Below are positions 3,802 to 63,813 of a stretch of DNA of 64,000 nucleotides, piece after piece. The stretch's first letter is position 1. The number at the start of each line of letters is the position of its first letter. Made by a program: the position numbers and the translations under genes. This DNA is from Amphiscolops sp. MND2022 (lineage: Eukaryota), in assembly GCA_964187785.1 (NCBI GenBank), contig OZ076409.1, forward strand, positions 57,476,001-57,540,000. The letters are read 5' to 3'. The notes beneath the pieces are model-generated. The model was not told the DNA's origin, ran no database searches, and worked only from the letters and a program-made list of their open reading frames with translations.

Positions 3802-4092
3802 ACACAGAGACGAAGCGGTGCTTCGCAACACATGACGAAGACATAGATTATTTTAATATGCGTATATATATTATTTTAATCGCATGCGTATATATTCAAC
3901 AGTTCAACTTTGTTCAATAACGTCCCTGTGGCACAGTGGTCAACACTTATGCCGTGCAATCGGGAGGCTGCAGGTTCGAATCTCTCTGGGGTTTTGGCTT
4001 TATTCTAAAAAGCGCTCATTATGAAGTTGACTATTGTGGAAAAAAATCTTTCTTAACTGGACTGCAATGCACATTGACTTCGTCATGTGCAA
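3802..4092 (-). mobile_element. Helentron-like family B (~290 bp) with tRNA-like core
   Basis: Hairpin CGAAGC-GGT-GCTTCG, then 12-bp subTIR CACATGACGAAG (3829-3840) whose exact inverse CTTCGTCATGTG is at 4078-4089. Near-identical copies at ~50707-50995, ~52840-53128 and ~54973-55261. Confidence 0.75.
3922..3993 (+). pseudogene. tRNA-derived cassette (A box TGGCACAGTGG, B box GGTTCGAATC); positional anticodon TGC
   Basis: Canonical A/B box spacing, but the stems do not pair, so not a functional tRNA. Copies at 50825, 52958 and 55091. Confidence 0.6.
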
Positions 4093-5438
4093 TATAGATG
4101 AATGTGAATATGTACACGTATTTGAATATTACTGCATAAGAGTTCGACATATGAGATTCAAGTTTGTTGAGGTCAAGTGGACAGTAGCTGTTTACTTGAG
4201 TAGTTCCTTCATCACGATCTTCGCAAGTAAAGGCGCGGCTCAGCGGGCTGCCATAGGTCACCATCGTGGCAAACGTGCAGGTCCCAAAAACGGTAGCTTT
4301 GAAATATCCATTTTATCTTGCAAGAACTTCAGTCACATTTAAATCCCCGCGACTAAATAAAACAGACAACATGGAAGCAACCATTATACTACAAGCAATT
4401 GAGCCTTGTTCTGCATTTGCATTAAGTTTTACTATATTCATTTTTAACATATTCTTGGTTTAAAATTGTAAAAACAAGCTCGACATTTTCCGTACAATTC
4501 AGATATTTTCTTGCAGAATTTCATTCAATTTAGAGACATTGTCGTGCCGGATTCTTGGAAGACCTTGAAAGAATCTTGCAAGAAACGTCTGACCAGCCAG
4601 AATCTGGCAGGTTTGTCTGGAATGTGAGATACTTGGAAGCGTCGTGCAGATAATGTCTGATATCTTCCACTTCTGCCAGATTCTTGCAAGAAATGTATAG
4701 GAGTTCGACCAAGATATCTCTAAGCCATCGGATTAACTGCTGATTTTTCTAAACTGGTTCTATAACCCAATCTGCGGCTTTTGAATGAAATTTTTACCGA
4801 ATTTTTGGAAGTTTTTCATGAACGCTTTTTCATCTGAAAAACACTTTTGTTGATCTGTTATTCTTTGGCAGTTGACCTTTTTTTGGCATTTTAACATTAT
4901 TAATGGCACCATGATTGCCTTGTTGCAAATCTTCAACTTTTGAAGTAATGAAATACATAGAAATGAAATATTCATTGTCTTCTCATTCTTCTGTCATCCC
5001 TGTAATTTGCCGCGTACTGCTTTTCCGTGACAGAATTTGAGAAAGTTTGATCAATTGGCTCTTTAAACAATGCACTCTAGCAAATGTTTACTCAAATACA
5101 AATTGAAACTTGAAAAATTTAATCCCAGTTTGTCTAGCTAGTGCTGGGAATGCGAGGCTCCGAACTCGAAAGTCCGGGATCAATTCCCGGTCTTGGCAAA
5201 TTTTTCCTTTTCATTTGCCAATTTGCATAAGATTTCCAGGACTGCATCTCCTTTGGTATCCTTGGAAGTTCTGGATTTCACAAAATTATATATACAACGT
5301 GCTGTGCTCGCTTGCTTACTTACTTCACTTCATTTTGCTTCTGTTGTTTCATTTCAGTTTTTGCAGTTTTATTGGACGAACCACGATCATGATAAGCACT
5401 TGCTTGACTCTAGCGCAAAGAAAATGCCAGTTCCTTTA

Positions 5439-5980
5439 TTTTTAGTCGGCGCTTCATGAAGTGAAACGCGACTAATATAGTGACTTTTTTCAATCCAGAC
5501 GAACTGACCAAAATGGTTCTTAGAAGTTCTACAAATCTTTATGGTCCCAAATTGAATCATTTTGCCTAGCGAACTGAACGAAAAAGGTTTTTCTTCTTTT
5601 TCCGCGTAACATACCATACCGCGAGAGACTAAGGAGTCCCGCTTCAATTTTTTGATGTTTTTTGACAGACTGGATGTTGAAAAATCCCAACGGGTCCCCC
5701 CATTCGGTTTTTTTTGGCATTGTGAGACTTTTTTCGGATTTTTTTCCACCAAAGGGTCCCCCCTTCAATTTCTTTGATGTTTTGCAACAATGGATGTTAA
5801 AAAATGCGAAAGGATCCCCCTTTAGCGCGACAGGGGCCCGCGCTAGCGGGTACCTGGCGCGCCAGTTCCCTGTTTGAGTTTCTCGTGAGTTTCATACTTT
5901 GAGTTTTTTGACACTTTCATGTCCTTTTGCTATTTTTGAGCCTTAGATATGGCGCCGACTTATGCCGTTCCCGGCTTGTT
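5439..5980 (+). mobile_element. Helentron-like family A copy
   Basis: TTTTTAGTCGGCGC...GGCGCCGACTTATGCCGTTCCCGGCTTGTT with GGGTCCCC internal repeats. Confidence 0.75.
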
Positions 5981-6163
5981 TCTGATACCAAGTGGTATTT
6001 CAAGTTTCAGTGTTCGGTCTAATTCTTAAATTTGAGGATTCCATGGACAGTTTCAAGTTGCACAAAAATGTTTCTCCTTGAACGTTTACATGTACAGTTT
6101 TGCCAAATGTTACATCAGGAAGCTTACGTCACATTTTTGATTCGCACACATTGTTGAAAAATT

Positions 6164-6262
6164 TCTACGAACAAAAATTGTTCAGCGAACGAAAAGTGTC
6201 TACGAACGAAAAACGTCTGCGAACGAAAAATATCTGCGAACGAAAAATGTCTTCGAACGAAA
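6164..6262. repeat. ~17-bp minisatellite (TCTRCGAACGAAAAAYR), ~6 units
   Basis: Directly visible tandem units. Confidence 0.8.
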
Positions 6263-6935
6263 CGGACCGCTTCAACTATATGGTTCAAAATTATTAAACT
6301 AACTGCATGCAGAAAAGCGATTGCAAATAAAACTTGAAGTCCATTTTCTCTAGCTAGTTTGTGTTGCTTACAAAGTCACCTCAGAAAACACCAAATGCTG
6401 TTTAAGACATTTCGAAATAGTGCATCGAATGCAACGAAATGGAACTGGAATTCAGTATATTCTGTATATTCTGAAAACGTAAGCCCTAAAACAAGCAGGT
6501 ATTTAAAGCTGGAATAAGGTCATTGGACTCCTTGTAACGTTCGATCCCAAACGTTTGACCTTACGGACCAGTGGTTTACATTTAGAAAGATTTAAATGCC
6601 GTGAAATGAAAATTGGGGCAGAGGACATTCACGAAGCTACAGTTCGTTCAATTTTATAAATTAATATGTGCTCAATTTTTTTACTGACTAAAGAACTTTG
6701 AGCTCATTCAAGTTTTCAACCATTCACCTTAATCCTTTTTAATTATGGAATAGAGAATTGGCCAGCATGTATCCCTTCATAACCGCGGTAAATGGTCGTG
6801 CTTTTGATGAAACATACTCTCATTCCTCATTTCAGTGACCAGAATTTCAGTGAAAAGAATAGAACGAATAACAACGAAACTACAAAAGCCATTACCGCGC
6901 AACCTCAAGAAAACGTTCCATTTGAAGCCGATGAT

Positions 6936-12789: not shown

Positions 12790-15700
12790 TGTCCTGGTGG
12801 TTGGTGATTCCCCCTGAGCGTCTCCGTCGAGATACGTCGGTATTTTCGGCTTCATAGGTGCTGAAATGGACAATTCTGACCAATCTGATAAAAAACAGAT
12901 TTTCCGTCGTTTATTATATTTGTAAAGTCCGTTCTCGTTTTTTTGCGTTGATGTTATTCGAACGGCGTTTTCTTCAATCCGGTGTGTTTTGTGAATCGCA
13001 TTACTCTTATTGCTCGGTTTACGCTTTCGGTTAAACTATTACCGCCTTCCATGTTTGCCATTAAAAAGTTTTCTATTGTTTGCGTTGCTTCTTCAAGTGT
13101 TACGTTTCGGTATGCATTCGGGGTGGGTAGTGTTGAAATTCTATATTTTGGGATTGACACAATTGATTATACTCGGACGAAATAAATGCCCCTTCTATCG
13201 GATTGTACTTTCTTTGAGATTCCGTATGAAATAGGATGGCTTGTTAGAAAAATTATAACTTCTTTCGCCTCGACTGTTTTGAAAGTTTTTGCCGTCGGCC
13301 ATTTACTGAACCGGTCTATGGCGATTAGTATTTGAGGTTCTCCGTATATATTCTTGTTATGTAATTTTCCGGTGAAATCCATTTGTAAATCTTGTCGGGA
13401 TCGCTTAGTTTTTCTTGTTTCCTGTACAGATTGATTTTTTGGAGTTTGGTATTCAAGATTCTTACCTATGACAAGACAGGCGGTGCAAGGCGAAGTGTAA
13501 GATGTCGATTTGTGTTCTTCTGAGGTGGATTGAGAAAGCTATTTGGTCGTCTACGAAGACTAAAACCCCGTCGACTAGCTTTTCTCTCTTCCCTACGCAT
13601 GCTTGCTCGGACTCGTGTCATTGCTGGTTGATTGCGTTTTCAAGATGAGGGTCTTTAGGTCCAACATTCTAAGTCAACATTCTTTGAATTCAACCTTCTT
13701 TATGTTGTCTTCTGTCAACGTTTTGTTCTCCGACTGTTTGCGCACTCTTTGGTCTATCTGTAGGTAGTGAGCCTATTTTCCTTCGGTGTGATATTTGCTG
13801 ATGTCGACGATCTGTAGGTTGTCACTCGCATAACGCCACTGTCCTTTTTGGTATCAACCGTATTTTGATCGTCCTGCAATTCTCAGTCTTCAGGAGTTTC
13901 CGGTTTTTTTTCTTCGTCCAGTTGTATTGGTTTTAACTACCGCCCAACCGTTTTGCTCTCTAGGTTAGTTCCTGCGTCTATTGCCGCAATTTCTTCCCGG
14001 CTTCTTTTATTTAGCCTTGACAGTGCGAAAATTGTTCATTGTGATTGCTGGTCGTATCTCCTCCGCCCTCTTCCGGTTCTAGCTAGCGTTTCTTTTCTCT
14101 CGACTAATCTTCTTGTTTCCGGGCTTTTGTTTCTTCTTCTTCAATTTATCTCCACAAATTCACAGGTGGCTCCCCAGTGGTATAAATTTTCTCGATTTAT
14201 TTCCGATTTGGTAGCAAAAGCTTCTTTCAAATTTCAACTGTTCTTTGCGGTGCTAATATCGGACTGACTGGATATAGTTTTTTTCGTTTGCGTTGAGTTT
14301 GTTTACGTGGTTTTTGTTCTGTAGTATTCTTTTTGTCTTTCATTGGTTTGCTCAACTCATTTCAGTTCCGGTTTTGTTTCTTTTCGGTTTCTTCATTTCG
14401 ATAGGCTGTCGAATAACAAACCATACATTGCGTTCAATTCTACGTGTTCGGTTAAGATAATCAGTACGTCTTCTTCGTCGTATTTGTCTTGTATCGGGGC
14501 TCCCTCTACCGGATTTCTGCTAAGATAATCGGTGGATTTTAGATTACTGTCGGCGATATGTTGAACTGCAATATCAAAGTGCGCTAACCGGTCTAGCCGC
14601 CAAGTTAATCTTGCGCTAAATTGAGGGTTACTACGGTTTCTTTTAGTGGTTCAAATATTTGATGATCCGTGTATAGGTGTATTTTCTTCCTTTTTATGTA
14701 AAATTGAAAACATCCAATCCCCAGACTATTGCCAGTAATTCGAGTTCACCAATGGAGTAATTGTTTTGGTATCGTTCAAATACCTACTACCGAATGCAAT
14801 CCGTTCAAAAGCTCCATAGTCGTGTTTCTGCCATAGTAAAATTCCAAGGCCGGTCTTGCTTGCGTCCCTTGTAACCTGTTTTTCTTACCGTTTGGGTAAT
14901 GAGTTAAGCATGGGTTTTCAGTTAACATCCGTTTTAATTGCATGAAGTCTTCTTCCTGCTCATTTTTCTATTTCCATTGATCGTTTTTCATCAAAAGTTT
15001 CTTGCGCCTGTCCGAATTCTCCACAAGTTTCGGTAGAATGTTCGCAAATATTGTATTCTCCCGAGGAATAATTTAAATTCCTTTGCGTTGTTGGGTGATT
15101 TCAGTTTCAATATTGCTTCCACTTTTTGTTCGTTCGGTTTTCTTATGTTTTCATCTATCTCAAGTCTAACCACTTCGTTCGTAGCATAAAGAATTCTGAC
15201 TTTCTTTTGCTCGCTCGAAACCCGATTTTTTAGTCGGCGCTTTTCGAAGAAAAACGCAGACTATAGTATTGACTTTTTTTAAGACCAACGAACTGACAGA
15301 TTTTATAATATTTATAAGTTGACCGACTAACACTAAACTGCCACTACTGCCACACTACTTCACTGCCACACTACTTCACTGCCACTTGGCATAGAGGTTA
15401 CGGCTTTTTTAAGGTCTGCCAAGCAGAAGGACATGGGTTCGAGTCCCGCCCTTGATCAAAATTTTTTGTACAAATTTTTTTCGGCTTTGTGAGACTTTTT
15501 TTCGCAATTATCTCCTAAGGGTCCACCCGTCATTAATTTGTCTATTTTGCAAAAAATGGATGTTCAAAGACTCCCAGAGTGCCCCCTTTTACATGTTTCG
15601 GCACTATGCGACTTACCGGAAACCAAAAAAATTCGAAAAAAAATTAAAAGAGTTCGGAATTTTTTCCAATTTTTCCTCAAGCGGGTACTCTAGAAGAGAA

Positions 15701-16440
15701 TACTTGACACTTTGAAGTGCTTTTGCTATTTTTGAGCCTTAGATATGGCGCCGACTTGGGCCGGTCTCGGCTTGTTCTAGTTTGTTTTGGACGACAAAAC
15801 GTTTCTTCTCATGTTCTTGTTTATTTCCGCGTATTACTACTATTATATCGACCAGTCATGCCGGTGTAGAGTTTTCTAACGTTCGGTCGATTTTTTTCCT
15901 AAATTATTGTGAGTATGTCGGACAAACCGTAAACTGCTTTTTGAATTCATAATATCCGCTAAACATGCCCCGGAGATTGCGGGTACTTATTGGCGACTGT
16001 TTTCTTTCGATAATTTCATTTTTCTATATTCGTAATCTAAGTCAATCTTCGAAGTGAATAAATGAGTTGTCCGATGACTATTTTCTCCCGATATTTGGTT
16101 TTATAATTCTTCCATGTTCAGCATGTTTTGTGTCCTCTATCTCTTCGTCGGTAAGTTTTCTAACTTTTCGGTTGATGTTTGATCTCATCTGACACGCGCT
16201 TGCGTAGTGTCCCTTCTTCTCGCAGTTGTTACAATTGGATTCCAGTGCGGGGTATTTGTGTATCGGGCTTCAGTTTGGTGCATTGCAAAATCTACTCGGC
16301 CGGGTTGAGGTAAATTTTCTTTTCGGTCTGGTACCAAATTTTTCCTTTCTTTGTTTTGGTTCTTCTTTGATGATTGGTTTTCTTCCTGTAATCAGGGCTT
16401 CTGGTATCCTGTTTTTTTTGTTCTTCTTTTCATTTATCAT
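12790..16440 (-). mobile_element. Decayed Ty3/Gypsy gag-pol (zinc knuckle, RT, RNase H, integrase)
   Basis: On the minus strand: CNNCEKKGHYASAC knuckle (~16195-16235); RT with PA*LVDII in place of the YxDD motif (~15840-15870) and EQKVEAILKLKSP...FLG; RNase H DASKTGLG...ELELLAIVWG...YTDHQ (~14500-14870); integrase MDFTGK...IAIDRFSKWP...SDR...TGLKKTPFE (~12950-13400). Order is RT-RH-IN; many stops, frameshifts and deletions. Confidence 0.9.
15226..15776 (+). mobile_element. Helentron-like family A copy inserted into the Gypsy RT, with tRNA-Gly(GCC)-like cassette (~15381-15453)
   Basis: Full family A termini; removing it rejoins RT-like LEKSG/FRASKRKSEF at a T-run with no TSD. Confidence 0.8.
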
Positions 16441-21500: not shown

Positions 21501-24500
21501 TAAAAGGTTTTTCCTCGGTTACTGGCGTTTTCTGTCTTGTTCGTTTTCTTGGGAAAATATCTAGTTTTCGGCGCGGTTCTCTTTTCAAGTTATTATCAAC
21601 AATTTCACCTTGAAAGCCGACAAGAAAATGACCATGACGTCCACTTGGCGTAGTCGTTAGGGTGCGTGATTTTGAAGCAAGAGTAGGCGAATCCGAATCC
21701 CCTGCATAAGTAAAATTAATCAAGTTCGAGGAGCTACACCAGACCAATAAAGTAGCCCTAAAAAAGAAAACACATTTTATCCGATGTTTTGACCCTATGT
21801 CCCAATGTTTTTACTCCTTATCAGGAAACAGGATAGAAATTGAACATAATATATGGATAATAATATATAATATGTAACGTGATATAATGTTTTTTTAGCT
21901 GCGCCCCAGCTTGTAGCTGAGTGGTCTACCAGATTTATGCGTGCTTCGATGTATTTGCACTGTTTTTAGCTGTCTTTGCCAACCCGAGAGCTAGTTTGTT
22001 GCAATTTTAGATACTATTCTGATATCACCCTGGAACTGGAAATTTACCTAATTCTTGGCATTGTTTTTATGTGCTAGGTAAGCGGTGGTCTTCAGCGAGT
22101 CAGGAAGATGCCCGTTACTGTTAGCAATCAAAGACCTCTTTCATTTTTTTCTTAAAGTAACATACAAAACGGAAAGAGAGTAGATGCTCCCTTTCAGTTT
22201 TGTTCAACGTTGAGACTTTTTTCAAAAATTGTTTAATGTCTTCAAAGGGCCCCCTAAATTTTGAGCATATTTTGAAAATTTTAAGCCTTAGGTATAGCGC
22301 CGACTTGAGACGTTTCCGTCTTCTTTAATGTTTTGCAGTCGGCAATTTCAAGCCGTGAATTTCTGCAGATTTCATTATGCATCAGTCGTCTTCAAAGTTC
22401 AACGTGCTATTTAAAAAGCTGTGATTACATCAGATGATTGGTTGAGAAATTGAAGTGTGAATACAAAAGAATAGTGTCGGTAACGAGGTGTAAAACTTTT
22501 TCAATTTCATTTGGAATAGTGTGAGCTGCAGTGTAGTTCTACAAGTTTTAACGCCGAACCTTGATAAATGTTCTAACTTTTATTTGAAAATACTCTACAA
22601 GCATCACACTTCATGTTACACTTTTTCAGACTTTAAGCGTGTTCTTAACAGTACCCAAGGAGTCCAAAATTACTGCCTATGAGTAATTCAGTTTTATCAT
22701 ATCCTCTAGACTTAATGGAACTGAAGCGTCCCTCTCAGTGTTTGTGTTTTTTGGCACCGTGCGACCTTGTTAAAATTTGATTGTCACGTTTGTCTTTTGA
22801 TGTTTTCAGTCAGCGACAAGCTTTTTACGATCACGAATGGCTCCCGCTGGGTCTTTCATGCATTCGTATATTTTGAGGTTTTTCTTGAGAAGACATATTT
22901 TTCAAAGTTTGCGCTTTTTGAGCCCCAAGCGGGCGCCGATTTGAGACCTTCCCGTCTTTAATTCTTTTTTAATCAGAAAGCATAAAACGAATTTTCCAGG
23001 TCTCGTGGGACGCTCTCGCATCTCTTACGAGAAGCATCCTCTTTGTAAGCTTTTCTCATTTTAGTTTTCACAAAGACTGGAGATCTTGTAAAATCCTGCA
23101 TAAATAATTTTCTTGGCACTGTTCTCTTACAAACTCGGGTATAAATTTCATCCTATATTGTTTCAATACAACTTCATTTATTCGATCTTTCCTGAGTACA
23201 TACTCGATTATTTTTTCTACATTCTTTATAATCAGCTCAAAGATTAGAATTTTCGAAATGATGAACGTTTTCATGATTATCTCAAACTTTTGAGCTATAG
23301 ATTCAAGTGTCTGAAATTTTCTTTCATGACATTTAGGTTGTAGACACTGATAGAAATCAGGCATTGAACTTGAATTGAAATGATGCCATGTTTCGGGTTA
23401 TTGCCTTATTTTCAGTTTTTGAACTTCGACCTGAAAAAGTTGCTTTGACAAAGGTCGCGTGTTGAACTGTAAAAACACGAACAATTTATTGTGGGGTGCA
23501 AAGTTCACTTTCATCAAACATGACCGCGCATCTATATACACAGAAATGCTGTGCCTCGATTTCGACCAGTGGTGTGACTAATAAGGTCAAGATCGGAAGT
23601 CGAAAGGCATCATCATTCGATATGCCACAGAATTGGAAGTAAAGTCCGCCAGTGAAAATTGAAAATTGGACGTTTCTTCATCGTTTTTCAACATTTAAAG
23701 ACAAAATTTAATATGAATCAAACAAAGATTGCAAAAATTCTTTCAAACAGCCTCCTCGACATGAAAACCATGAAGGGATGAATCATATGATAGTTAACTC
23801 AAAGTGATTCTTAGCCAATCTTCTTCAACACTGACAAAAAACTCTTGAAATAAGACTTTTTCAGCGAAAGCTACTGCTCCAACACTAATTTAGCTGACGT
23901 CTAGTTGTATGAAATACCGTTTTCCAACAAACGTTATTTCTCGCGAATGCTGAACAAAACTTTTCAGTGACTTTGCGATAGATTCAATTCCTCAGGAAAC
24001 CTTCATGAACGACTCACAAATGAACAGTTTGCCCGAAGCAGGTCGAAACTTTAATATTCAAAGTTTAATCTCTTTGTATGGCTGAAGAAAATCGTTTCCA
24101 AACATTTCAAATCATCTGCGAATATGAAGAATAAATTTAGTCGACGCTTTTTTAAGAAAAGAGTCGACTATAGTTGTTACGACTACCTAACGGAGTGATA
24201 TTTTGGGTAGTCGTTTTAGTTTTTTATAGGGGTTGATGTAGGTACAATGATTGTATTTTCTGAAGTCGAGTTGTCATTTCTGATAAGAACCAATATGTTT
24301 CAAGAGTTTTGAATTTTTCAAGAAGAATTGCTGTTTTAGTAACGTAACAAACAGTGTAAGAACGATCAATAATAACCATCTGATTTAATTTACCAAACCA
24401 ACACATTTATACTTTCCTATCATCATTTGTTCCTCACCTAAAAAGTCCTAGGTACCATAAAATTGGGTTTCTTCACACAGAAACTCAGTTGATTCATATT

Positions 24501-24504
24501 ATTT

Positions 24505-24630: not shown

Positions 24631-26644
24631 GAATAAAAGTCTACTCAATTTTTTCATCGACGGAAGCACGCAGGCAAGAACAATTAGTCAATATCCAAGT
24701 TGGGAGTTCAATTGCTCAAGACAAAAGTATGACTAGCAAAAATGACAACGTAACTAAAACGGAATGAAATTGATCGAGGGTGAAGGAAAAACTGAGATGA
24801 GTGAAAGGGAACAAATGATGCTAAATGTTACATGTTCCAGTGTCTACTGGAAATTAAAAATGCATTCAATGTGAAAAAATTGGCAGAACTCATTTATAAC
24901 AACTATATAACTCAGCAACAAAACGCTAAATCAAACGGAAACCTTACAGGAGACAAAAATTCACTTCGTAATAAATGCGTATAAAACATCAAACAACGAA
25001 TAGTTAAAAAGGCATATTGTCACCCTGTGTGCGACAGTTACGATGTTATGAGATTCAGCAATAGCACTGGATATGAAAATAATTTGCTTGGGAGAGAAAC
25101 GAGTATATTAATCAAAGTCACCGGTACGTTAAGTTGGGGATTCTCCGTTAAATTGGGAACCATAGTTATGGTGAAACATTCAAAATTGATTCAGGAGAAC
25201 AGTCGTATGTTACGTAAGTTGAACGCGATTCCATGATAAGTATTTCAGTATAAATCCAAAACATTAATATTATAAACACAGTTTCACAATTTTTCCTTAC
25301 AGTACAGCATTCGTCATATAAAATTCTAGTTCTGAAGATCTCTTAATGCACCGCATCGTTTCCTGAAGAAATTCCTTTCAAAACTAACTGAAAATAGCAT
25401 CTTGATGCTACACTCTTATAATTCGCTCCGCAACGTCTCTGTATGTATTTAGATTAGGTCTAGCTGAAGAGCGGTTTGACGGAGACGTTATGTTGAGCTT
25501 TAGAAAATCATTCCAATTCTCCAATTAGTGACGTCACAAGATCTTTCCGAATAATAACGTAATGCTAGCATAGCTGTCGCGATGACATCACAAAAATCAT
25601 ACCAATTAGTTCACAACAGTACATTTAACCGAAGCAATCGCGTTTAAAGTAATAACAACCGGAAGCTGGGCGTGAAACAATAGTCAGGGTTTTTCGTCAG
25701 TTTTTTCTCTTTTTTGATACACCTGTACTGTCCAAAATAGTTCTACCAAAAGTTGCTCAAATGTCCTTTTTGGCAATCTATGTATTATATTTGAGCTGTA
25801 AAAAGTGTTAAGGAGTCCCCTTCGACAATAACACAACCCATACCGAATTAAACGCGAACCAGATATAACGAATTCCGGATATAACGTTTCTTGGAGAAGT
25901 TTTCATTGATACAAAAGGGTCCCTTTCGATTTTTAGGATATTTTAAGACCTTAATCTTTTTCAACCTAACCGAACAGCTGTTTTATTCTCAATACTCTAT
26001 CATTCTTTGTTAGAGCTTTTTTTAGGCTCTGAGCGTTTTTTTCGAAATCTACATTTGGTCAAAGGGTACCCTCCTGCTTTCATAGCGGATTTCGGCGGCT
26101 GGAGGAAAATGAGTTTTTTGATCTGAAGGTTCGTTTTCCGGCACTATGACACCTTTCCGAAAAAAGTCGAATTTTTATTCAAGAAAATTTTTTGTTTCCA
26201 GTTGGGGGAAATGCGGTTTCCGAGTCTCATGCGTATCCTTTGGGGTATTTTTCGGGACTGAGAAAATGATTTAAAAATTTAAAACAGTGCCCTCTGCCGA
26301 TTCAAGAAACTTGAGCGGGGCACCGACTTGGGCCTGTCCCGGCTTGTTAATATAAAGACTGGCGCTTTTCGGAAAAAAGTGGAAGACTACTGCAGTGACT
26401 TGAAGATTTTTTACTGAGAGGTCCGATTTATGTAACTTTTGAAAAATTTACTGGATTATTTCCATGAAAAACTCGATGGCTTTTGGGTTACAGCACTGAC
26501 TTCTGGAGTGGAAGAAAGTGGGGTTCGAATCCCGTTGAAGTTTAATTTTAATTCTATTTTTCTAATTCAAATATGCACCTAGCATTGTCTGATATAAAAA
26601 CATATAATAAAAAAGAATTCGCGCATAGAACATTATAATGGGTA

Positions 26645-46520: not shown

Positions 46521-46894
46521 GTTAGACCACAAATCTCAAGGTGGAGGGCCTTGTTTGAACACTTTGTATCCGCCATAATTCGGCCCAGTGTTGGAATACG
46601 CTCTTGCCTAGCAAGATGTCGTGGCTTCGAATCCCGTCCACTGATTTCTTCATAATTGCAAGTTTTGACGGGTTTAAAGGGTCCCGTGTAAAAATCATTT
46701 TGGCACTATGGAACTTTTTTCGAATTTTTTTTTAAAAATAGCGTTCGTTGTTGTTTTCAGTTAGTGAAAAGCGTTATTCGACGCCAGAGGATGTCTTTTT
46801 TGCACTCTTTCATTTTCGATAAATGCCTAAATACATCTAACCATAATTGAGACTTGGTGTTTTTTGAGCTTCAAGCGTGACGCCGTTTTAGACG

Positions 46895-47692
46895 TTTTTA
46901 GTCCGCGCTTCATGAAGTGAAACGCGACTAATATTGTGACTTTTTTTTTCAATCCACACGAACTGACCAAAATAGTTCTCAAAAGTTATACAAAATATTA
47001 TTGCACCAAATTGCACCTATTGGCAGAGCGAACTGAACCAAAAAGGTTTTTCCTGTTTTCCCGCGTAACATACCATACCGGGCGAGACCAAAGGGTCCCC
47101 CCTTTCAATTTTTTTCGGCACTGCAACTTTTTTTCGGAAATTTTTTTCCCCAAAGGGTCCCCCCTTCAATTTTTTGCTGTTTTGCGACAGAATGGATGTT
47201 GAAAAATCCCAAAGGGTCCCCCCTTTCAATTTTTTTCGGCACTGCGAGACTTTTTTCCCGAAAATAAAAATTTCCCACTTCAATTTTTTGATGTTTTGCG
47301 ACAGAATCGATGTTGAAAAACCCTAAAGGGTCCCCCTTTCAGTTTTTCGGCATTGTGAGACTTTTTTTCTAGAAAAATTTTCTCTCCAAAAGGTCCCCCT
47401 TCAATTTCTTTGATATTTTACAACAGATTGGGTGCTTAAAAATCCCAAAAGGTCCCCCTTTCAGTTTTTCGGCATTGTGAGACTTTTTTTCAAAAATTTG
47501 TTTTCTCTCCAAAGGGTCCCCCCTCCAACTGCGACAAAAATGTTGACAATTTCGGAAGTGTCCCCCTTTTAGCGCGCCAGGGGTATTTTTTTGGGTTTCC
47601 GATTTTCGAGTACTGTAAATTGACACTTGGTAGTTCTTTTGCTATTTTTGAGCCTTGGATTTGGCGCCGACTTGGGCCGGTCCCGGCTTGTT
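46895..47692 (+). mobile_element. Helentron-like family A copy with expanded internal GGGTCCCC tandem array
   Basis: Family A termini; repeated AAAGGGTCCCCCCTTTCA units about every 60 bp at ~47090-47525. Confidence 0.75.
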
Positions 47693-48056: not shown

Positions 48057-49080
48057 ACACAGAGGCGAAGCCGTGCTTCGCAAACACTTGCGAACTTTTG
48101 AAAACCAAATGAAAAATATCTATCATACGTAGAACCAAGGGTAGAAGGACTGTTAAAATTTCATCAATTTTACAGCGCCAAAAATACCCGAAGGGATGGG
48201 CATAAGTCTCGAAAACCATTCTTCCCCAACTGAAAACAGCAAAAAAACTATCTTCCTCAACGGAAAACCTTAAAAAAACAGAAAATTGAAGGAAAAAATT
48301 TTTCGAAATTTTTCCAAAAGATGTTCGAAAAATTTTTTGAAGGTCACCGGCAAATTTTTTGAAGTCGCATAGTGCCGAAAACCTTGACGAGTCCTTTACA
48401 GTCGCAAAACGTTTCATTTTTGGTAAAAATTGAGGGGGGGGACTTCGATAAAAAAATTGAAAAAGTCGCATATAAAAAACACCGGTCTTTAAAAAAAATC
48501 GGATATAGCGTGCTGGGCCTGAGAAAACCTAACTTTAAGACAAAAAGTATTACTTTTGAAAAATCTCACAAGGCCGAAACTTGTGAAAGGGGGGTTCTTT
48601 CAGATTTTTTAATATTCATTCTTTTGCGATATTTCAAAAAAATTGAAGGGGGACCATTTGGAGACTTCGAAAAAATTTCCAAAAATATGCGAATTTTTAA
48701 CAGTCTCATAGTGCCGAAAAATCTGAAAGAAGAGACCTTTGGGAATTTTTTAACGTTCGATTTTTTGCAAAATATCAAAAAAAATGAAGGGAGGACCCTT
48801 TGGGGACATTTAAAAATTTTCGAAAATAAGTCTCAAAAAGCCGAAAAGGGGGGAGTCTCATTGTCGAAAAAAGTGAGAATCTTCTGCTTCGAAAAACTTG
48901 TAAAAAAAACTAGCGCATAGGCACGGGTTCGAACCCGAACCCTTTGGGTTGGTTAAAAAAGCAAGCATCTTACCGCTAGACCAAGAAAGTCTGAATTATG
49001 CGACTTGCGGTCTGAAATGAGAGTTGTCGCGCGGAAAAAAACTCGCATTTTCCCATAACACTTGCTTATCGCAAGTGTAA
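48057..49080 (-). mobile_element. Helentron-like family C with tRNA-Glu-like cassette (~48911-48990, -)
   Basis: Hairpin GCGAAGC-CGT-GCTTCGC, subTIR ACACTTGCGA (48084-48093) / TCGCAAGTGT (49069-49078), fold-back ACACTTGC-TTATC-GCAAGTGT. Further copies at 49682-51375, 51976-53508 and 54109-55677. Confidence 0.75.
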
Positions 49081-52000
49081 TAAGCCCTGTTTCATCATTG
49101 TTAAGTTTCTCAAGTAACAATTCTATACATTTAGGGCACAATTTATCTGACGGTAATTGAGACAAAAAGTGCAGTGGCACTGCGAAGTTTTCCTATACGG
49201 TTACATCAGAACACTTCCAAATGGGACCTTTCAGGTTTTGAAGAAAACCCTTTGACTACTGTTATCACAAAAACACAATACTGTGATTTTGTCAAAAAAT
49301 CGCAAGGCCGAAAATCTCCAAAAGTCTTACAAATTGAAAACTTCAAAAAACCGAAGCAGCGATCCTGTAAAGAAAACAAACCTAACTAGTCGCACACAGT
49401 CGTAAAACAGTAGGTCTTTTCCACAGTTAGTAAGAAAATTCTGAACACTGGACCACAATACAACCTAAGAGGCCACATTCAAGAGTGAGAAACCCAGTTT
49501 TTTGGCAAGCCAGTGTGCAAAAAACCATAGGGAGCTCTCTATACTCGCAAAACACTTTGCTTCTGCTGAAAATCGAGGGGGCCTACGGTTTTAAATATAA
49601 GAAAAATGATGCATAGCGCCGAAAAATTCCGATGTGGGAACCTTTACAACCCATGTACTTCTGCTTCTCCAACCTTTTAAAACAGAGGCGAAGCCGTGCT
49701 TCGCAAACACTCGCGAAAAAAGTTGCGAACTTTCGAAGAGAAAACCAAACAAGCAGCAGCGCTGACCAGCAGGATATTTTCCGTCCGAACTGTTCTAGCA
49801 ATGGCATTTTTGAGGCTCAAGAGTAGCCATTGCCACTATGAACGCATAAAAGTTTGATAAAACAAGTTTTTCTTGGATTTTTTGTCAATTTCGATATGAC
49901 TTTGAGGCATTTTTTTCAAAACAAATTGCATTTATCTCTTCAAAGAAGCCTCTTGGACAACAACTTTTTTCTTTGTTGAACGTTTTTAGCTTTCTAAGCT
50001 TGCAAGTGTATCAAAAATTTGACAAAAATTCCATAAAAACGTTTTAAATCTGATTTTTGGAATTTTTCAAATTCGGTCTCAATTTGAGGCAATTTTAAAT
50101 TAAAAATTTGCATTTATTTCTCCGAAAAAACCTCTTGGATAACAAAATTTTTCCTTCTAAACGTTTCAACATTCTAAGCCACGAAATCTATCGAAAATTT
50201 GACAAAAATTTCATAAAAACGGTAAAGATCGGAAAATTTTTCAGTATTTACTATTTTGGGTCATTCTGGTGCCTTTGGGGTCAAGCAAAAAATTCAAAAA
50301 TCTCTACAAATACATACCGCAAGATACTTATTTTACGTCAGTTGGATTATATGGGTGATACGCTTTAGCTTGGATATAAATTTCGTGCTTGGCAAATTTT
50401 GTAAAAAAACCGTTTGATTTAAATATTTTCCTTTTCCATGAAATATGGACGGAAAATAAGCAGTATCAACCAATGGTAAAAGGGCAACATTGTAAAAATT
50501 TCATCAATTTTACAGCGCTCAAAAATACCCGAAGGGATATGCATAAGACTCGAAAACCATTTTCCCCAACTGGAAACATCAAAAAACCCCATCTTTCTCA
50601 ACCGAAAACCTTTCAAAAAATAACTCTAAAAGGGGGACCCTCTAAGATTTTGTTGGAAAATATCAAAAAATTCAAGGGGCATCCTTTGGAGACTGAAAAA
50701 ATTTCGACACAGAGGCGAAGCGGTGCTTCGCAACACATGACGAAGACATCGATTAGTTTAATATGCGTAAATATTATTTTAATCGCATGCGTATATATTC
50801 AACAGTTCAACTTTGTTCAATAACGTCCCTATGGCCCAGTGGTCAACACTTATGCCGTGCAATCGGGAGGCTGCAGGTTCGAATCTCTCTGGGGTTTTGG
50901 CTTTTATCTAAAAGGCGCTCATTATGAAGTTGACTATAGTGGAAAAAAAAACTTACTTAGCTGGACTGCAATGCACATTGACTTCATCATGTGCAAAAAA
51001 CAAAAAAGGAGAATTTCGAACAGTCTCATAGTGTCGAAAAATCTGAAAGAATGTTTTAACATTCGTTGTTGCAAAATTTCAAAAAAATTTAAGGGAGGAC
51101 CCTTCGGGGACATTGAAAAATTTTCGAAAATAAGTCTCAAAAAGCCGAAAAAGGGGGAGTCTCATTGTCGAAAAAAGTGAGAATCTTCTGCTCCGAAAAA
51201 CTTGAAAAAAAATTAGCGCATAGGCACGGGTTCGAACCCTTTGGGTTGGTTAAAAAAGCAAGCATCTTACCGCTAGACCAAGAAAGTCTGAATTATGCGA
51301 CTTGCGGTCTGAAATGAGTTGTCGCGCGGAAAAAAACTCGCATTTTCCCATAACACTTGCTTATCGCAAGTGTAATAAGCCCTGTTTCATCATTGTTAAG
51401 TTTCTCAAGTAACAATTCTATACATTTAGGGCACAATTTATCTGACGGTAATTGAGACAAAAAGTGCAGTGGCTCTGCGAAGTTTTCCTATACGGTTACA
51501 TCAGAACACTTCCAAATGGGACCTTTCAGGTTTTGAAGAAACCCTTTGACTACTGTTATCACAAAAACACAATACTGTGATTTTGTCAAAAAATCGCAAG
51601 GCCGAAAATCTCCAAAAGTCTTACAAATTGAAAACTTCAAAAAACCGAAGCAGCGATCCTGTAAAGAAAACAAACCTAACTAGTCGCACACAGTCGTAAA
51701 ACAGTAGGTCTTTTCCACAGTTAGTAAGAAAATTCTGAACACTGGACCACAATACAACCTAAGAGGCCACATTCAAGAGTGAGAAACCCAGTTTTTTGGC
51801 AAGCCAGTGTGCAAAAAACCATAGGGAGCTCTCTATACTCGCAAAACGCTTTGCTTCTGCTGAAAATCGAGGGGGCCTACGGTTTTAAATATAAGAAAAA
51901 GGATGCATAGCGCCGAAAAATTCCGATGTGGGAACCTTTACAACCCATGTACTTCTGCTTCTCCAACCTTTTAAAACAGAGGCGAAGCCGTGCTTCGCAA

Positions 52001-55000: not shown

Positions 55001-55396
55001 ACATGACGAAGACATCGATTATTTTAATATGCGTATATATTATTTTAATCGCATGCGTATATATTCAACAGTTCAACTTTGTTCAATAACGTCCCTATGG
55101 CCCAGTGGTCAACACTTATGCCGTGCAATCGGGAGGCTGCAGGTTCGAATCTCTCTGGGGTTTTGGCTTTTATCTAAAAGGCGCTCATTATGAAGTTGAC
55201 TATAGTGGAAAAAAAAACTTACTTAGCTGGACTGCAATGCACATTGACTTCGTCATGTGCAAAAAACAAAAAAGGAGAATTTCGAACAGTCTCATAGTGT
55301 CGAAAAATCTGAAAGAATGTTTTAACATTCGTTGTTGCAAAATATCAAAAAAATTTAAGGGAGGACCCTTCGGGGACATTGAAAAATTTTCGAAAA
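48812..55396. repeat. Tandem triplication, units of 2304, 2133 and 2133 bp
   Basis: Register motif AAAAATTTTCGAAAA at 48812, 51116, 53249 and 55382. Units 2 and 3 are nearly identical; unit 1 has ~160 extra bp near 50208-50368. Confidence 0.95.
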
Positions 55397-55514
55397 AAGC
55401 CTCACAAACCCAAAAAGGGGAAGTCTCATAGTGCCGAAAAAATTTGAAAGGGATGCTTTAGTGTGAATCAGGGACAAGAACACGTGATCTGCTTCGGAAT
55501 GCTTGTAAAAAAAT

Positions 55515-55590
55515 TAGCGCATACGCACCGGTTCGAACACGAACCCTCTGGGTTGAAAAGCAAGCATCTTACCCCTAGACCACGAACGCC
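55515..55590 (-). pseudogene. tRNA-Glu(TTC)-like cassette in family C
   Basis: Minus strand GTGGTCTAGGGGTAAGATGCTTGC-TT-TTC-AA-CCCAG-AGGGT-TCGTG-TTCGAAC resembles eukaryotic tRNA-Glu; stems are broken. Confidence 0.6.
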
Positions 55591-55675
55591 TGAACTGTGC
55601 GAGTTGTGGGCTGAAACAAGTTGTCGCGCGGAAAAGCACCCGCACTTCACCATAACACTTGCTTATCGCAAGTGT

Positions 55676-56040
55676 AACAAGCCGGGAACGGCCCAAGTCG
55701 GCGCCATATCTAAGGCTCAAAAAGACTCAAAAACCACTTTTTCTACAACTGGAGACAACAAAAGCTCTCAAAAACTAAAAATTGAAAAAAAAATTCCGAA
55801 TTTTTTTTTCGAAGTTTCCGATAAGTCGCATAGTGCCGAAAAATGTAAAAGGGGGGACGCTTTTTATCTCATGTTAGACGCTTTGGATGCGTTGAAAATG
55901 AAGTACTAAGTACATATGGTAAAAATTGGTAAATGTGCATTAATTGCCTTAATGCACAAAAAGTGGACGTTACGCGTTGAACTGACGAAAAAAAACTAGC
56001 CACTGTAAGAGTCGGGATTTTCTTCGAAAACGCCGACTAA
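55676..56040 (-). mobile_element. Helentron-like family A copy abutting the family C end
   Basis: GCAAGTGT-AA-CAAGCCGGGAACGGCCCAAGTCGGCGCC...CGCCGACTAA. Confidence 0.75.
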
Positions 56041-60018: not shown

Positions 60019-60865
60019 GGATGTTTTTTGAAAAAAAGACGCCCTGATAACCGGGATACTTTTCGGCCTAAATTATTTTTTAGCAATAACACGATTATAT
60101 GTATTGAGCGTAGCCAATGAACTTATTATTGAACGAATATATTCACAAAATTGCCAAAAAAACTTGCAAAAAACGCAAAAAATGAACTAAATATCATTTC
60201 AGGTATATTCTGAAAACTTCAAAAATTTCGATACATTCGCATGCTGCAAATCTATTTTTTGTACCTAAATTTTGTGAAAAAACATTTCGTCAATAAAATT
60301 ACAGTATGTTAAAATTTGGAGAAAAAACACCGGTTGAGATTAATTTTTCTTCCAAATATAATATGGCGGAAAATAACTTTTCGACATTCGCGGTTCTGTT
60401 ATTTTAGAAGTGCCCAACCGGAGCTATCATACCGATTGAAATTAAAAACTTTCCTGGGGAGGAAAAAGCAGTATTAATATGGATATGCTTGAATCAATTG
60501 GCTCGAAGATGACAAAAAAAATCACATTTAACACTTTATTTCATTCTTTGAATACCAATTAAACATAAATCATTTTTTAGTTCTTTCCTCAAAATTAACC
60601 GTCGTATTACCCCTTTGCTAAACTTAATCTTAATAACGTACATTTTATTTGAACTTACTAAAGATGAATGAACGTGTAGTACTTAATTGAGACCTTTCTG
60701 TAGACGATGAACTACATGCACACTGACGATCAATTGCGAGCGATTCGAGTCACTATGCAAGCAAACTAGAACTGTTGGGGGTAATGTACCAGAGAACTGT
60801 GAGAAAAGAACTGAAACTATTAGCTAACACAATCCATATTCGAATTCAATTTAGGGGCAAATATT

Positions 60866-62950
60866 TTACAAAATGAATGAAGCGTAAATAGCCAACAAAA
60901 ATAGGAGCGTGATTGCGATCAGGGTGAAGGTCGTTGGCGGAGTGAAGAGACATCGATATGAAAATCTGAGGTACCAAAGTACCGAGAGAAATATTGCGAA
61001 TAACAAAAACATCAAATTGCTCAAGTCTATATTGTCTGAATTGAAGTTGTCCAATCTTCCGCCCCCCGATGCATCATTGCCAGCTGCATTTGAAGACCCA
61101 GAAGTAGCACTTTGAGCTAGAATGTGACAGTGGATGACGCAATTGACCAAAACGCCACTCTCCACAAGACTCAAAGTCTCATCTCGAAGTAGACCGCCGG
61201 CAAATATCAACCTCACCTGTCCGCCCCCGGAAATGACGTCACGAAATATGCGGGTTTTGAAGTCGGACAGCTTTTCAGAAGGGTGAACCTCCACTTCACA
61301 TTGAAGGTCGTTCAGAAACTTGAGTTTGATGAAATAACAGTCACACTGTTGGTCTCTCAGGTGTTCGGGCAATTCCAAGTTTAGAGAGGACAAGGAGAAC
61401 TGAGAACTGGAATAAGGAGGTGCATTTGATTGGCTGTCCGATGATGTCTGGTCAGTTTGAGATGTCGTCTGGTCAGCTGCTGTCGTAGCAGCGTTGGTGG
61501 CAGATATTGACTCAGAAGTCGCTGCTGCAACCGAACTTGTATTTCTTCTGCGCAACGTCGAAACAGCAGTTTGATGAACTTGTTCCACGAATGTCCGGAA
61601 GGAGTTTCTAAACAATTAGATATCATTTCTAAACAAAGAAAATTATAGATCGGGGAAACGTAATGGCCTTCGCGGTGTCAAAAATTGAGCAGAATTTCGG
61701 GACTTTTTATTTTTGCATCAGAACATCTGTTTACATGTTGAAACTAACAAAGTATTGTTCGTCGCAGACACCCCTCTGTTTTGAGATGTTCTGCTACCAT
61801 TTCCATTTCCAGAAATGTTGTGCAGATCGTCCTCCACAGAGGCAGACTCGTTCGAACTACTACTTGCCCCGCTTGCCACTGTTCCAGGGCCGTTGTTGTT
61901 CACGCTCTCGCCGCCTGTCCCTGGAGAAGATGCGTTGTAAGAAGTGTCGTTTAGCTCCGACTGAGTGACATCTAGTCCCGACAAGTGCTGTGAAAACAGC
62001 CACTGTTGAATTATCCCATCAAGAGCGTTAACCTTTTTAGAATTTTGGACAACAGTTTCTCAACAATAGAAACATTTTGTCTTCAATTCAATGTTTTCAA
62101 ATCTATTTTTTGTAAGACTTCGCTAGAAATCATGATAGAAAAACACTTTTCAGAAGAAAATGTTTAAACAAGACGGGAACGTCTAAAGTCGGCGCTATAT
62201 CTAAAGCTCAAAAGGCGCAAAGTTTTTAAAATTGTAAAAGGGGGACCCTTTAGACTTTTTCAAATCCAGTTTGCTGCAAAATATCAAAAAACTTGAAGGG
62301 GGGGACCGTTTGGCGACAAAAAAATTCGAAAAAAAGTAGCACAGTGCCGAAAAAAATTCAAAGGGGGGACCCTGTAGTCCCGTCCGGTTTTGTATCTTAG
62401 GTTAAAAATTGAGTACATGAAAGGGGCAACCCTTTGCACTAACTTAGATGCGATTCCGCTTGCCGGTCCAGTACTTTAGTAGTTCTGTAAAAAGTGTCTA
62501 CTACGCATACATTCTGTGGTCTGACGAAAAAAACTTGCCACAGTAATAGTCGGGCTCATTTTGATAAAATGCGCCGACTAAAAACAGTCATACTAAAAGT
62601 ATTTTCATGGGGGACTTTGCCAAGATTACGACCTGAGAGTCGTCTATCAAACTCATGATTTAGACAAACATTCACTCGAGGGACCCCTTTAAACATCGTT
62701 CATGAAGAACAGGATACGAAGAGGCACTATAATTGTCCGGTCTCTCAAGTCTAAGTGAATGGAGCCTGAAGAGTAGACTAACCTGGATGTCACTGTTGTT
62801 AAATGTCTGGTTGCCGCTGGTGAGCTGGAGGTAGAGCAGGGGTCGGTTGGGCACGTAGGTCGAGATCCACACCAGATACAGCAGCACAACCAGCAAGGTG
62901 GCCGCCAACAACAGCGTCACCTCGTCTCCGAAGCCCTCGATCAGTGTCAT
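60866..62950 (-). CDS. TMUB1: Transmembrane and ubiquitin-like domain-containing protein (TMUB1/2 family); exons 62783-62950, 61749-61987, 60866-61607; 382 aa
   Basis: N-terminus MTLIEGFGDEVT...VWIST matches the TMUB1 signature. UBL domain IKLKFLND...QVRLIFAGGLLRD...NCVIHCHI and two C-terminal TM helices. GT-AG junctions join in frame (phases 0 and 2). Confidence 0.93.
62166..62584 (-). mobile_element. Helentron-like family A variant (AGACG-GGAA-CGTCT hairpin) in TMUB intron 1
   Basis: AAACAAGACGGGAACGTCTAAAGTCGGCGC...GCGCCGACTAAAAA. Confidence 0.75.
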
Positions 62951-63270
62951 GTCACATCTGGAAACACGGCACAAGATTCAACAGATGATACATTACGTTC
63001 ACATATTACACATATACAGATCTCCGGATTCAGCAACTAACAATGAGTTAAATGAACATTAACAACCTCTGTTCGAGACACTTCATGAAAATGGTACAAA
63101 ATAAAAATTCGGTCAATTTTCTACGAAACCACCTATTCTTCGTACACGAGCTATAACTCAGCCGAAAAAAAACTTGCATTTCAATAAGTTGGAATGAGCT
63201 AGAGTAACAAGCTCATCATGGGTGAAGATCAAGAAAAAAATGTCCAGAGATAACAGTGAAAATTTTGCAA

Positions 63271-63813
63271 TTTTTTAGTCGGCGCTTTTCGTAGAAAACG
63301 CAGACTATAGCAGTGACTTTTTTTTCAAGACCAACGAAGTGACAGATTTCATAAGCTTTATAAGCTGCGTCCACTAACTGCCACACTTGTAACTTCTACT
63401 GCCACTTGGCATAGAGGTTAATTAGGATAGTTTTTGATGTCTGCCAAGCAGACGGACGTGGGTTCGAGTCCCGCCCATGACAAAAAATTTTTTGTGCAAG
63501 TTTTTTTCGGCTTGGTGAGACTTTTCTCGCAAATTTGTTAAATGTCTCCAAAGGGCCCCCTTCATTTTTTCCCCTATTTTGCAAAAACATGGATGTTCAA
63601 AAACTCCCAAAGGCCCCCTTTTACATTTTTCGGCACTATGCGACTTACCGGAGACAAAAAAAAATATCGAAAAAAATTCAATAAAAATTCGAAATCTTTT
63701 TTCAATTTTTTCCTCACGCGGGTACTGTAGAAGAGAATACTTGACACATTGAAGTCCTTTTGCTATTTTTGAGCCTTAGATATGGCACCGACTTGGGCCG
63801 TTCCCGGCTTGTT
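63271..63813 (+). mobile_element. Helentron-like family A copy with tRNA-Gly(GCC)-like cassette (~63400-63478)
   Basis: TTTTTTAGTCGGCGCTTTTCGTAGAAAACGCAGACT ... TGGCATAGAGG ... CT-GCC-AA ... GGTTCGAGTCCC ... GGCACCGACTTGGGCCGTTCCCGGCTTGTT. Confidence 0.8.

Follow-up and report, generated by a model that had tools for sequence, protein, structure and literature searches.

Decayed tRNA-derived cassettes inside Helentron families of Amphiscolops sp. MND2022

Helentrons and tRNA-like cassettes in the window

We analysed a window of 64,000 bp (contig OZ076409.1, positions 57,476,001 to 57,540,000) from Amphiscolops sp. MND2022. Near its right-hand end lies a family A non-autonomous Helentron of ~540 bp (63272..63813, + strand), in which a 5' subterminal repeat with a partial inverted repeat is followed by a tRNA-derived cassette, by shared core repeats and by a 3' subterminal repeat with a hairpin, and which has T-rich flanks. 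The cassette (63400..63478, +) has an A box at ~63407-63418, a B box at 63461-63471, a shortened anticodon loop and a T run ~9 nt downstream. The second copy of the family (15227..15778, +) carries its cassette at 15381..15453 (+; B box at 15436), and two more copies lie on the - strand: one at 2892..3379, absent from an earlier sequence-only reading of this DNA, in which the B box of the cassette (~3180-3260) is damaged, and one at 2463..2835, in which a deletion has removed the 3' half of the cassette.

A full-length family C non-autonomous Helentron of ~1020 bp occupies 48058..49080 (-), and its cassette (48911..48990, -) is followed directly by a T run. More copies of this cassette lie near 51215-51285 and 53348-53418, and the best-preserved cassette of the window, at 55515..55590 (-), belongs to an element whose 5' end is at 55675. 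Family B is shorter (~290 bp): the element at 3801..4092 (-) has 15-nt subterminal inverted repeats (3829-3843 and 4075-4089), shares its 3' hairpin with family C and carries its cassette (3922..3993, +) antisense. A further family B copy sits inside a family C element at 50706..50996 (-) and is repeated at 52839-53129 and 54972-55262. The three additional B copies reported earlier are therefore present, but as one 2133-bp tandem triplication, which accounts for the repeats at 50.7, 52.8 and 55.0 kb, rather than as separate insertions.

Other cassettes are decayed. The single-copy one at 46574..46643 (+) sits upstream of a decayed A-type 3' end (46841-46895, E 0.006), and the A-type element that holds it, likewise decayed, is truncated at its 5' end and stops near 46895; its earlier assignment to family A failed, with scores of 36-42 against A and itself as its sole match in the genome. 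The cassette at 26470..26542 (+) is placed ~110 nt inward of the decayed 5' end of an A-type element (26361-26412, E 2e-7). The stretch at 21638..21710 (+) is tRNA-like, as had been claimed, but its B box is broken, and it is a candidate element member whose place in an element is unproven because no element 5' end was detectable around it. For the last two, and for four relaxed ARAGORN matches, a look for relatives among the local loci gave either no match or one weak match.

A scan for B boxes preceded by an A box at a distance of 22-75 nt found nine pairs in the window, against a mean of 0.09 and a maximum of one in 100 shuffles; B-box matches numbered 17, against a mean of 2.0 over 100 shuffles. 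tRNA-like cassettes were found at all eight places listed by the sequence-only reading. Best scores against host tRNAs exceeded the best of 200 shuffles, in which the B box was kept fixed where present, for families A, B and C and for the cassettes at 46574, 26470 and 21638; the margins were thin at 46574 (52 vs 47), at 26470 (52 vs 48) and for the copy at 15381 (59 vs 54). As stated earlier, the stems have decayed, since ARAGORN at default settings detected no tRNA gene in the window and the top Rfam tRNA score, 23.2 bits at 55518-55589, lies below the cut-off of 29. With a cloverleaf below cut-off and 44-50 matches of ~72 to the closest host tRNAs, the cassettes do not qualify as functional tRNA genes. 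Rfam miRNA matches in the window were set aside as hairpins with scores under the cut-offs.

The cassettes are internal rather than at the element 5' ends, and are sense to the element in A and C and antisense in B, both as originally described. They start ~100-130 nt inside the element in A and C, and the B box lies 132-225 nt from the 5' end, at similar distances across end classes. A fourth end class, D, also carries a tRNA-like cassette, the best copy of which reaches 28.1 Rfam bits (cut-off 29); A and B boxes at tRNA-like spacing are found in families A, B and C and in six of 30 D copies. Most families were detected through the B-box scan, and their recurrence therefore looks inflated.

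Helentron ends, insertion sites and autonomous partners

The carriers are non-autonomous Helentrons of the HINE/DINE-1 type (HLE2), so that the rolling-circle assignment stands, with Helentrons tied to autonomous partners as the type concerned. Subterminal inverted repeats are 15 nt long and 93% complementary in B, and 9-11 nt in A and C, where they were read from copy ends, are not among the longest pairs of the repeat finder and fall short of the 12-15 nt described in mite HINEs. Just past the 3' subterminal repeat stands a hairpin, of 6-7 bp in B and C (z -2.0 and -2.4) and weak in A (predicted stem 4 bp, z -0.85), where its position is conserved. The flanks of 134 full-length copies (37 A, 39 B, 40 C and 18 D) are T-rich. 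Flanking repeats of at least 5 nt occurred in 3/37 A, 1/39 B, 1/40 C and 2/18 D copies and were no commoner than expected from permuted pairs (0.087, 0.029, 0.034 and 0.117, respectively), and empty-site alignments for 12 of the 39 B copies showed extra T's only. Insertion is between T and T, without target duplication; neither a tRNA head at the 5' end nor a 3' tail, as would mark a SINE, was found. Membership of this family implies that transposition would proceed through single-stranded or circular DNA.

Inspection of 10 + 13 loci out of 152 Helitron_like_N matches yielded autonomous partners with the same ends, both for C ends (the 3' hairpin being shared with B) and for A-type ends; at five of the first ten autonomous loci (211, 217, 221, 223 and 229; also 219) the ends of A, B and C had no match. 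The autonomous Helentron with C ends is 11.8 kb long and encodes Rep, Pif1 and an endonuclease. Its loci L225/L226 match Helitron_like_N, DUF6570, PIF1 and UCH; the Exo_endo_phos match is weak (E 7e-4, under the cut-off) and the reading frame is split by a stop. Searching proteins with the endonuclease frame returned 15 unnamed matches. To this autonomous element the family C copy at 48058..49080 is 88.5% identical over the first 190 nt and 97% over the last 39 nt. The autonomous C family is young (copies ~99% identical), and the family C cassette lies ~105 bp inside its 5' end in all four copies for which that end was seen, with the B-box half doubled. The A-type autonomous loci L215/L216 hold a single 2304-aa frame, and three autonomous A-type families have no B box near the 5' end. 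Overall, cassettes are carried near one end by several Helentron families, including one full-length parent family. Chimeras also occur: two of 29 elements with a C 5' end (L263 and L278) hold an A cassette, one cassette having been swapped for another at the same place.

Relation of the cassettes to host tRNAs, SINEs and one another

The earlier reading had listed an anticodon for each type of cassette and proposed repeated capture of tRNAs. We compared the cassettes with 17 host tRNA sequences, covering ten amino acids plus one unplaced tRNA-like sequence; the set lacked Asp, Asn, Cys, Ile, Leu, Ser, Thr, Trp, Tyr and a confirmed Phe, and one Gly search pattern gave no match. Best scores of the cassettes (48-66) fell inside the range seen between one isotype and another (47.5-80), and the anticodon labels do not reveal the donors. 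Family B, labelled TGC (Ala), was nearest to Arg among the tRNAs tested, Ala being outside the six best; the family C (TTC) consensus scored highest with Pro (66), and the autonomous copy about equally with Pro (62) and Glu (60); the best scores of A were split between Gly-GCC and Glu. None of the cassettes can be assigned a donor tRNA, so that the listed anticodons lack support, as does the capture of named isotypes. Donors assigned by eye (C=Glu, A/D=Val, later A=Gly-TCC) were rejected, the scores disagreeing (Gly-TCC 42-43 for A). Dispersed Gly, Val and Ala genes, inspected by eye, had no common flanks and no element ends.

No single clade of cassettes is recognisable, in line with the independent captures first proposed: the pairs A-B, A-C and B-C score 22-38, at shuffle level (null ~30), and A, B and C appear unrelated, at a detectable level, beyond generic tRNA likeness. 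Among A, D and the L243 and CL5 types the mutual scores are 38-62. Secondary insertion of each cassette with its own duplication or tail found no support either, as no own tail, SINE body or flanking duplication was seen at any cassette, and all 30 best genome matches of cassette A extend past the cassette into the element on one side or both. A T run stands closely downstream of the cassettes, as after host tRNA genes. The tRNA-headed SINE of this genome (L398-L411) has a 5' head, a simple-repeat tail and, in some copies, flanking duplications. The proposed SINE/Helentron hybrid is unsupported in a mechanistic sense, because mobility is that of the Helentron and the true tRNA-headed SINE is a separate family.

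Box conservation and the weighing of explanations

Boxes no better conserved than the sequence around them had been named in the earlier reading as a result that would refute it, and at the level of copies this is what was observed. With copies picked by the 5' end alone (25/29 used per family), substitutions in C numbered 29/561 in boxes and 77/1260 in the rest of the cassette (p 0.25), and in A 31/570 and 57/1404 (p 0.93). When C boxes were compared with all non-box positions including flanks, Fisher p was 0.019 and column permutation p 0.073. In a test chosen post hoc and with CpG transitions excluded, shared variants numbered 7 in boxes and 65 outside and rare variants 124 and 627 (pooled p 0.086), and the 7-position B-box core held no shared variant in any of the four families. 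Among the 30 D copies, picked by 3' end alone and with boxes read by eye, six have both boxes, 16 the A box only, seven a doubled B box (four of them without an A box) and one neither; 17 of the 30 lack a B box, the A-only type being the commonest D subfamily. A sense B box is likewise absent from eight of eleven A-type 5'-end clusters with at least two members, and from all 21 members of the largest. The B box is dispensable for spread, cassette-less sister subfamilies having spread well.

Taking the parts together, we consider it probable that the cassettes are decayed copies of tRNA genes lying in a variable stretch just inside the Helentron 5' end: the genes would likely have been captured as DNA, terminator included, on at least three occasions, long ago; the cassettes would likely have been exchanged between element types through recombination; and the Helentron transposase would likely spread them as passengers, jumping without need of them, the cassettes themselves presumably being without function. 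Some observations run counter to a passenger role: four end classes contain tRNA-like modules, at a similar distance from the 5' end, the autonomous C family and 7/30 D copies have a doubled B-box half, a cassette was replaced at the same place in two C-type elements, shared variants somewhat avoid boxes, and C boxes differ from the non-box positions with flanks by Fisher's test, less so by permutation. A rather unlikely explanation is that the B box is a selected cis-element, through which TFIIIC would keep the end nucleosome-free or shield the donor, the fold being irrelevant and free to decay. The recurrence at similar distance would suit it, as would the presence of the box, its half doubled, at all four 5' ends of the young autonomous C family, the invariant core with the pooled trend, and the left end of the related Helitron Helraiser, essential for transposition (PMC4778049); but copies show no excess box conservation, the box is lost in the commonest D subfamily (16/30) and missing from the largest A-type cluster and from three autonomous families of A type, its orientation differs in B, and B-box scanning inflates the apparent recurrence. 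Transposase mRNA could not come from Pol III, since transcription is predicted to end at the T run immediately behind the cassette and the first long ORF starts ~3 kb downstream. For the C cassette no RNA entry was listed, which speaks neither for nor against transcription. That Helentrons repeatedly recruited B boxes, TFIIIC at the 5' end opening or shielding the donor and raising rolling-circle transposition, is unlikely, by a shade more; if true, these elements would be a DNA-transposon counterpart of the Pol III-bearing TRIMs and a vehicle that has scattered potential TFIIIC sites in the tens of thousands.

It is improbable that the cassettes are old SINE heads retrotransposed into Helentrons, with body and tail later lost, a route proposed for tRNA-bearing TRIMs (PMC10886601). 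The genome does contain an abundant tRNA-headed SINE (3203 first-look candidates), against whose head cassette B scores 60 (best host score 66), and the low identity to every tested host tRNA and the antisense orientation of B would fit a SINE intermediate and an insertion, respectively; no cassette, however, has a SINE body, tail or flanking duplication, the SINE head lacks the T run that closely follows the cassettes, and the best matches of cassette A extend into element sequence. Very improbable, finally, is one ancient capture, diverged beyond recognition and reshuffled among end classes: the mutual scores of A, the L243 and CL5 types and D lie partly above the null and A moves into C ends, but A, B and C score with one another at shuffle level, and each is nearer to some host tRNA than to the others.

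Among known systems, tRNA-derived SINEs are likewise dispersed repeats with A and B boxes of tRNA origin, but have a 5' head and a tail, whereas the cassettes here lie within the element, have no tail and precede a T run. A tRNA-bearing repeat is reportedly described in the C. briggsae genome paper. Papers on Helentrons, HINE and DINE-1 (PMC4067079, PMC2374699, PMC11417382) describe what is seen here, namely subterminal and partial 5' inverted repeats, a 3' hairpin, a T-rich target without duplication, central repeats and an autonomous partner with Rep, Pif1 helicase, endonuclease and DUF6570; unlike those, the present elements have internal tRNA-derived A/B-box cassettes. DINE-1 has no Pol III promoter or tRNA similarity according to Yang and Barbash 2008 (PMC2374699), and the word tRNA does not occur in the main text of PMC4067079 (Thomas et al. 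2014) or PMC11417382 (HELIANO). The TRIMp3 elements Helenus, Ajax and Cassandra, as presented in Kojima 2024 (PMC10886601), are also non-SINE elements with a decayed tRNA, recognisable boxes and disagreeing isotype and anticodon; they are LTR retroelements with a Pol III transcript as template, whereas a promoter role for copying is inapplicable here, since a Helentron is mobilised as DNA and its cassette is followed by a T run. The bat Helitrons HelibatN3/NUBPL (PMC4778049) capture and multiply a host promoter, but these are Pol II promoters in canonical HLE1 with transcripts shown, against Pol III-type boxes in HLE2, read from sequence alone. An Arabidopsis tRNA-Cys cluster overlaps annotated Helitrons (PMC10701932) and is one local array of intact genes whose Helitron ends three programs did not confirm, whereas the copies here number in the thousands, are dispersed and have clear ends and an autonomous partner; that 2023 paper calls such capture unrecorded. 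In the main texts of the open-access literature we found no description of tRNA cassettes in Helentrons, although element libraries such as Repbase and Dfam may already contain them, and term look-ups within PMC7492417, PMC5139131, 10.1101/596502 and PMC8010984 gave nothing relevant.

Even as passengers, the cassettes break the annotation rule that a tRNA-like stretch means a SINE, a mark used by the REPCLASS classifier (PMC2817418), and rolling-circle elements are seen multiplying relics of non-coding RNA genes. The natural sister subfamilies (A+B, A only, B only, none), together with the young autonomous family, make a benefit from TFIIIC, or insulator-like action of the copies, testable. 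Evenly spaced genome samples totalling 570 kb held ~16 cassette copies, and therefore roughly 30,000, a rough figure, would be expected genome-wide.

Likeness of the cassettes to tRNA genes

Cassettes, defined as a B box preceded at 22-75 nt by an A box, were sought in the window (contig C1, 57476001-57540000) and in samples of the 1.07-Gb genome (1929 contigs), which its size, tandem tRNA arrays and a short coding exon (window 62700-62950) suggest to be that of an animal; the window count was compared with 100 shuffles. The window contained 17 B-box matches, 9 of them paired with an A box against a shuffle mean of 0.09 pairs (maximum 1), which bears out the sequence-only reading that tRNA-like cassettes are present; 57 evenly spaced 10-kb genome samples yielded 39 pairs, compared with 1.3 expected, and up to 28 of the 39 come from one host tRNA-Arg array. 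When likeness to host tRNAs was assessed with 200 shuffles per cassette (the B box being kept fixed where present), the cassettes of families A, B and C and three single cassettes (window 46574, 26470 and 21638) beat every shuffle, some by a thin margin. ARAGORN detected no tRNA gene in the window, and Rfam tRNA scores reached 23.2 bits at window 55518-55589 and 28.1 bits in the best of the copies seen elsewhere, below the cut-off of 29; judged by sequence, no cassette is a working tRNA.

The best matches of cassettes A, B, C and D in a comparison set of 17 host tRNA sequences (about ten isotypes lie outside it) covered 44-50 of ~72 positions and scored 48-66. Since host isotypes reach 47.5-80 when each is scored against its closest other isotype, the donor tRNAs cannot be named, and the identities earlier read from anticodons are not supported: in this set cassette B comes closest to an Arg rather than an Ala tRNA, and for cassette C Pro ranks first, alone or level with Glu. 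By eye, the anticodon loop of cassette A seems shortened, so that the triplet counted there need not be an anticodon. Host tRNA genes form isotype-specific tandem arrays with units of ~170-310 bp, and in some of these arrays the units number in the hundreds and differ widely in anticodon (loci L031-L060, L168, L185, L231-L240, L244, L251, L326, L331 and L346). Window 5105-5210 (plus strand) holds a decayed, dispersed tRNA-Glu copy matching the host Glu array unit at ~70%, both flanks included, which points to DNA-level duplication outside any recognised element. A further tRNA-like repeat family occurs at loci L161 and L225 (cluster 9), with a long fold-back in L225.

Carrier elements and autonomous partners

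The end classes A, B and C of the window were defined from genome copies. Family A (~530 bp) combines a subterminal repeat of 9-11 nt with a weak hairpin at the 3' end; in family B (~290 bp) the subterminal repeat is 15 nt long, and family C (~900 bp) has a subterminal repeat of its own and a 3' hairpin in common with B; a fourth end class, D, lies outside the window and has 1042 exact 3' ends genome-wide. Each arm of the B/C hairpin (window 48058-48081 and 3803-3826) is a 7-nt word of the kind known from phage origins as an unusually stable DNA mini-hairpin. Full-length copies (37 A, 39 B, 40 C and 18 D) had T-rich flanks, and flanking direct repeats of at least 5 nt were no commoner among them than in permuted pairs. 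Alignments to empty sites, some of which are neighbouring elements rather than true empty sites, were obtained for 12/39 B, 6/37 A, 8/40 C and 3/18 D copies and displayed extra T's without duplication. These end, flank and target features match those described for HINE/DINE-1 (PMC4067079, PMC2374699). By every feature tested the carriers are Helentrons/HINEs, in agreement with their earlier description as rolling-circle-type. Two tandem structures were also seen, at window 50369-55683 (unit 2133 bp, ~2.5 repeats, 97% identity, with nested C, B and other repeats) and at window 31703-37592 (a duplication, unit 2946 bp, 98%).

Helitron_like_N gave 152 matches in the genome, of which 10 and then 13 loci were examined. 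An 11.8-kb element on contig C4 starts with a C end, finishes with the B/C hairpin, carries the C cassette ~105 bp inside its 5' end together with a second copy of the cassette's 3' half, and codes in a split frame for UCH, DUF6570, Helitron_like_N, PIF1 and a weak endonuclease match. Six copies in this autonomous C family share ~99% identity, and the cassette is present in 4/4 copies with the 5' end seen; of the other two, one shows no C 5' end and one extends past the stretch covered. The window's C element matches the autonomous one at both ends. Near the 5' end of three autonomous families with A-type termini, one of which has a continuous 2304-aa frame, no B box was found. The ubiquitin-protease-like domains differ: the C family (L225/L226) matches UCH (E 6e-23), whereas an A-type family (L215/L216) matches JAB weakly (E 2e-4). 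Many Helitron-like frames of ~2350-2600 aa cluster on contig C1 (73.4-76.5 Mb) and elsewhere, L217/L218 and L219-L224 among them; those examined match no A, B or C end and sit in ~1.3-1.5-kb tandem repeats.

The elements are of a known Helentron/HINE kind, the internal tRNA cassettes being the part for which no description in such elements was found in the open-access literature searched. DINE-1 is stated to be without them (PMC2374699); the nearest cases were TRIMp3 retroelements (PMC10886601) and an unconfirmed Arabidopsis case (PMC10701932).

Role and origin of the cassettes

It is established for the family that Helentron transposase copies whatever stands between the two ends; in Helraiser the left end is essential (PMC4778049). 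The cassettes are probably passengers copied along with the elements. tRNA genes, arrayed here by hundreds, would likely have been taken into a variable slot behind the 5' end, to decay there and then be reshuffled and multiplied with the element. Pol III, if starting, would halt at the T run and yield an ~80-90-nt RNA, neither template nor mRNA.

That the cassette is instead a selected TFIIIC site is possible but rather unlikely. Among copies chosen by 5' end only (25/29 per family kept, truncated or chimeric rows dropped), no excess conservation of the boxes emerged: in C, substitutions stood at 29/561 box positions and 77/1260 in the rest of the cassette (p 0.25), and in A the figures were 31/570 and 57/1404 (p 0.93). 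When the C boxes were set against every other position with the flanks counted in, Fisher's test gave p 0.019 and column permutation p 0.073. When variants common to several copies were taken to reflect source lineages (70, 68, 31 and 12 full-length rows), 7 shared variants fell in boxes and 65 outside, compared with 124 and 627 rare ones (p 0.086); the B core, which was singled out post hoc, contained no shared variant. The sense B box is missing in 8/11 A-type clusters. Both boxes are present in 6 of 30 D copies, while 16 have the A box only, in 7 the B box is doubled and 1 has no box at all, from which it follows that the cassette is dispensable. Still less probable is that the cassettes are SINE remnants: a SINE head is possible for family B, which scores 60 against it and 66 against its best host tRNA, but at no cassette was a SINE body, tail or own flanking duplication found. 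Moreover, a run of at least five T's lies within ~16 nt of the cassette in 6/7 cassette types (by eye; B has four T's), as near host tRNA genes, but is missing from the genome's true tRNA-headed SINE; such a run is expected by chance at 0.08 genome-wide and at 0.19 within element bodies, related cassette types not being independent. This favours uptake as DNA of a tRNA gene plus terminator. A single origin of all cassettes seems very improbable, as the scores among A, B and C (22-38) stay around the ~30 that shuffles give. At least three separate sources are therefore likely; of the repeated independent capture proposed earlier, this part is supported and the named donors are not. Cassettes A and D and two further A-type cassettes (mutual scores 38-62) may share an origin.

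Cassettes also move between end classes, since the A cassette occupies the same slot in 2/29 elements chosen by their C 5' end, on different chromosomes. The abundant SINE (L398-L411, e.g. L400; ~330 bp, tRNA head, simple-repeat tail) contains within its body ~15 nt that are almost the same as the A-type Helentron end read in reverse, which may reflect chance or shared history. In C and D cassettes (window 48911-48940, L370 and L159) the T arm looks, by eye, like a 12-18-nt palindrome, perfect or nearly so, that could favour duplications of the B half. Separately, window 62700-62950 (minus strand) holds a short coding exon, its start encoding a hydrophobic N-terminus that presumably resembles those of TMUB-type proteins.
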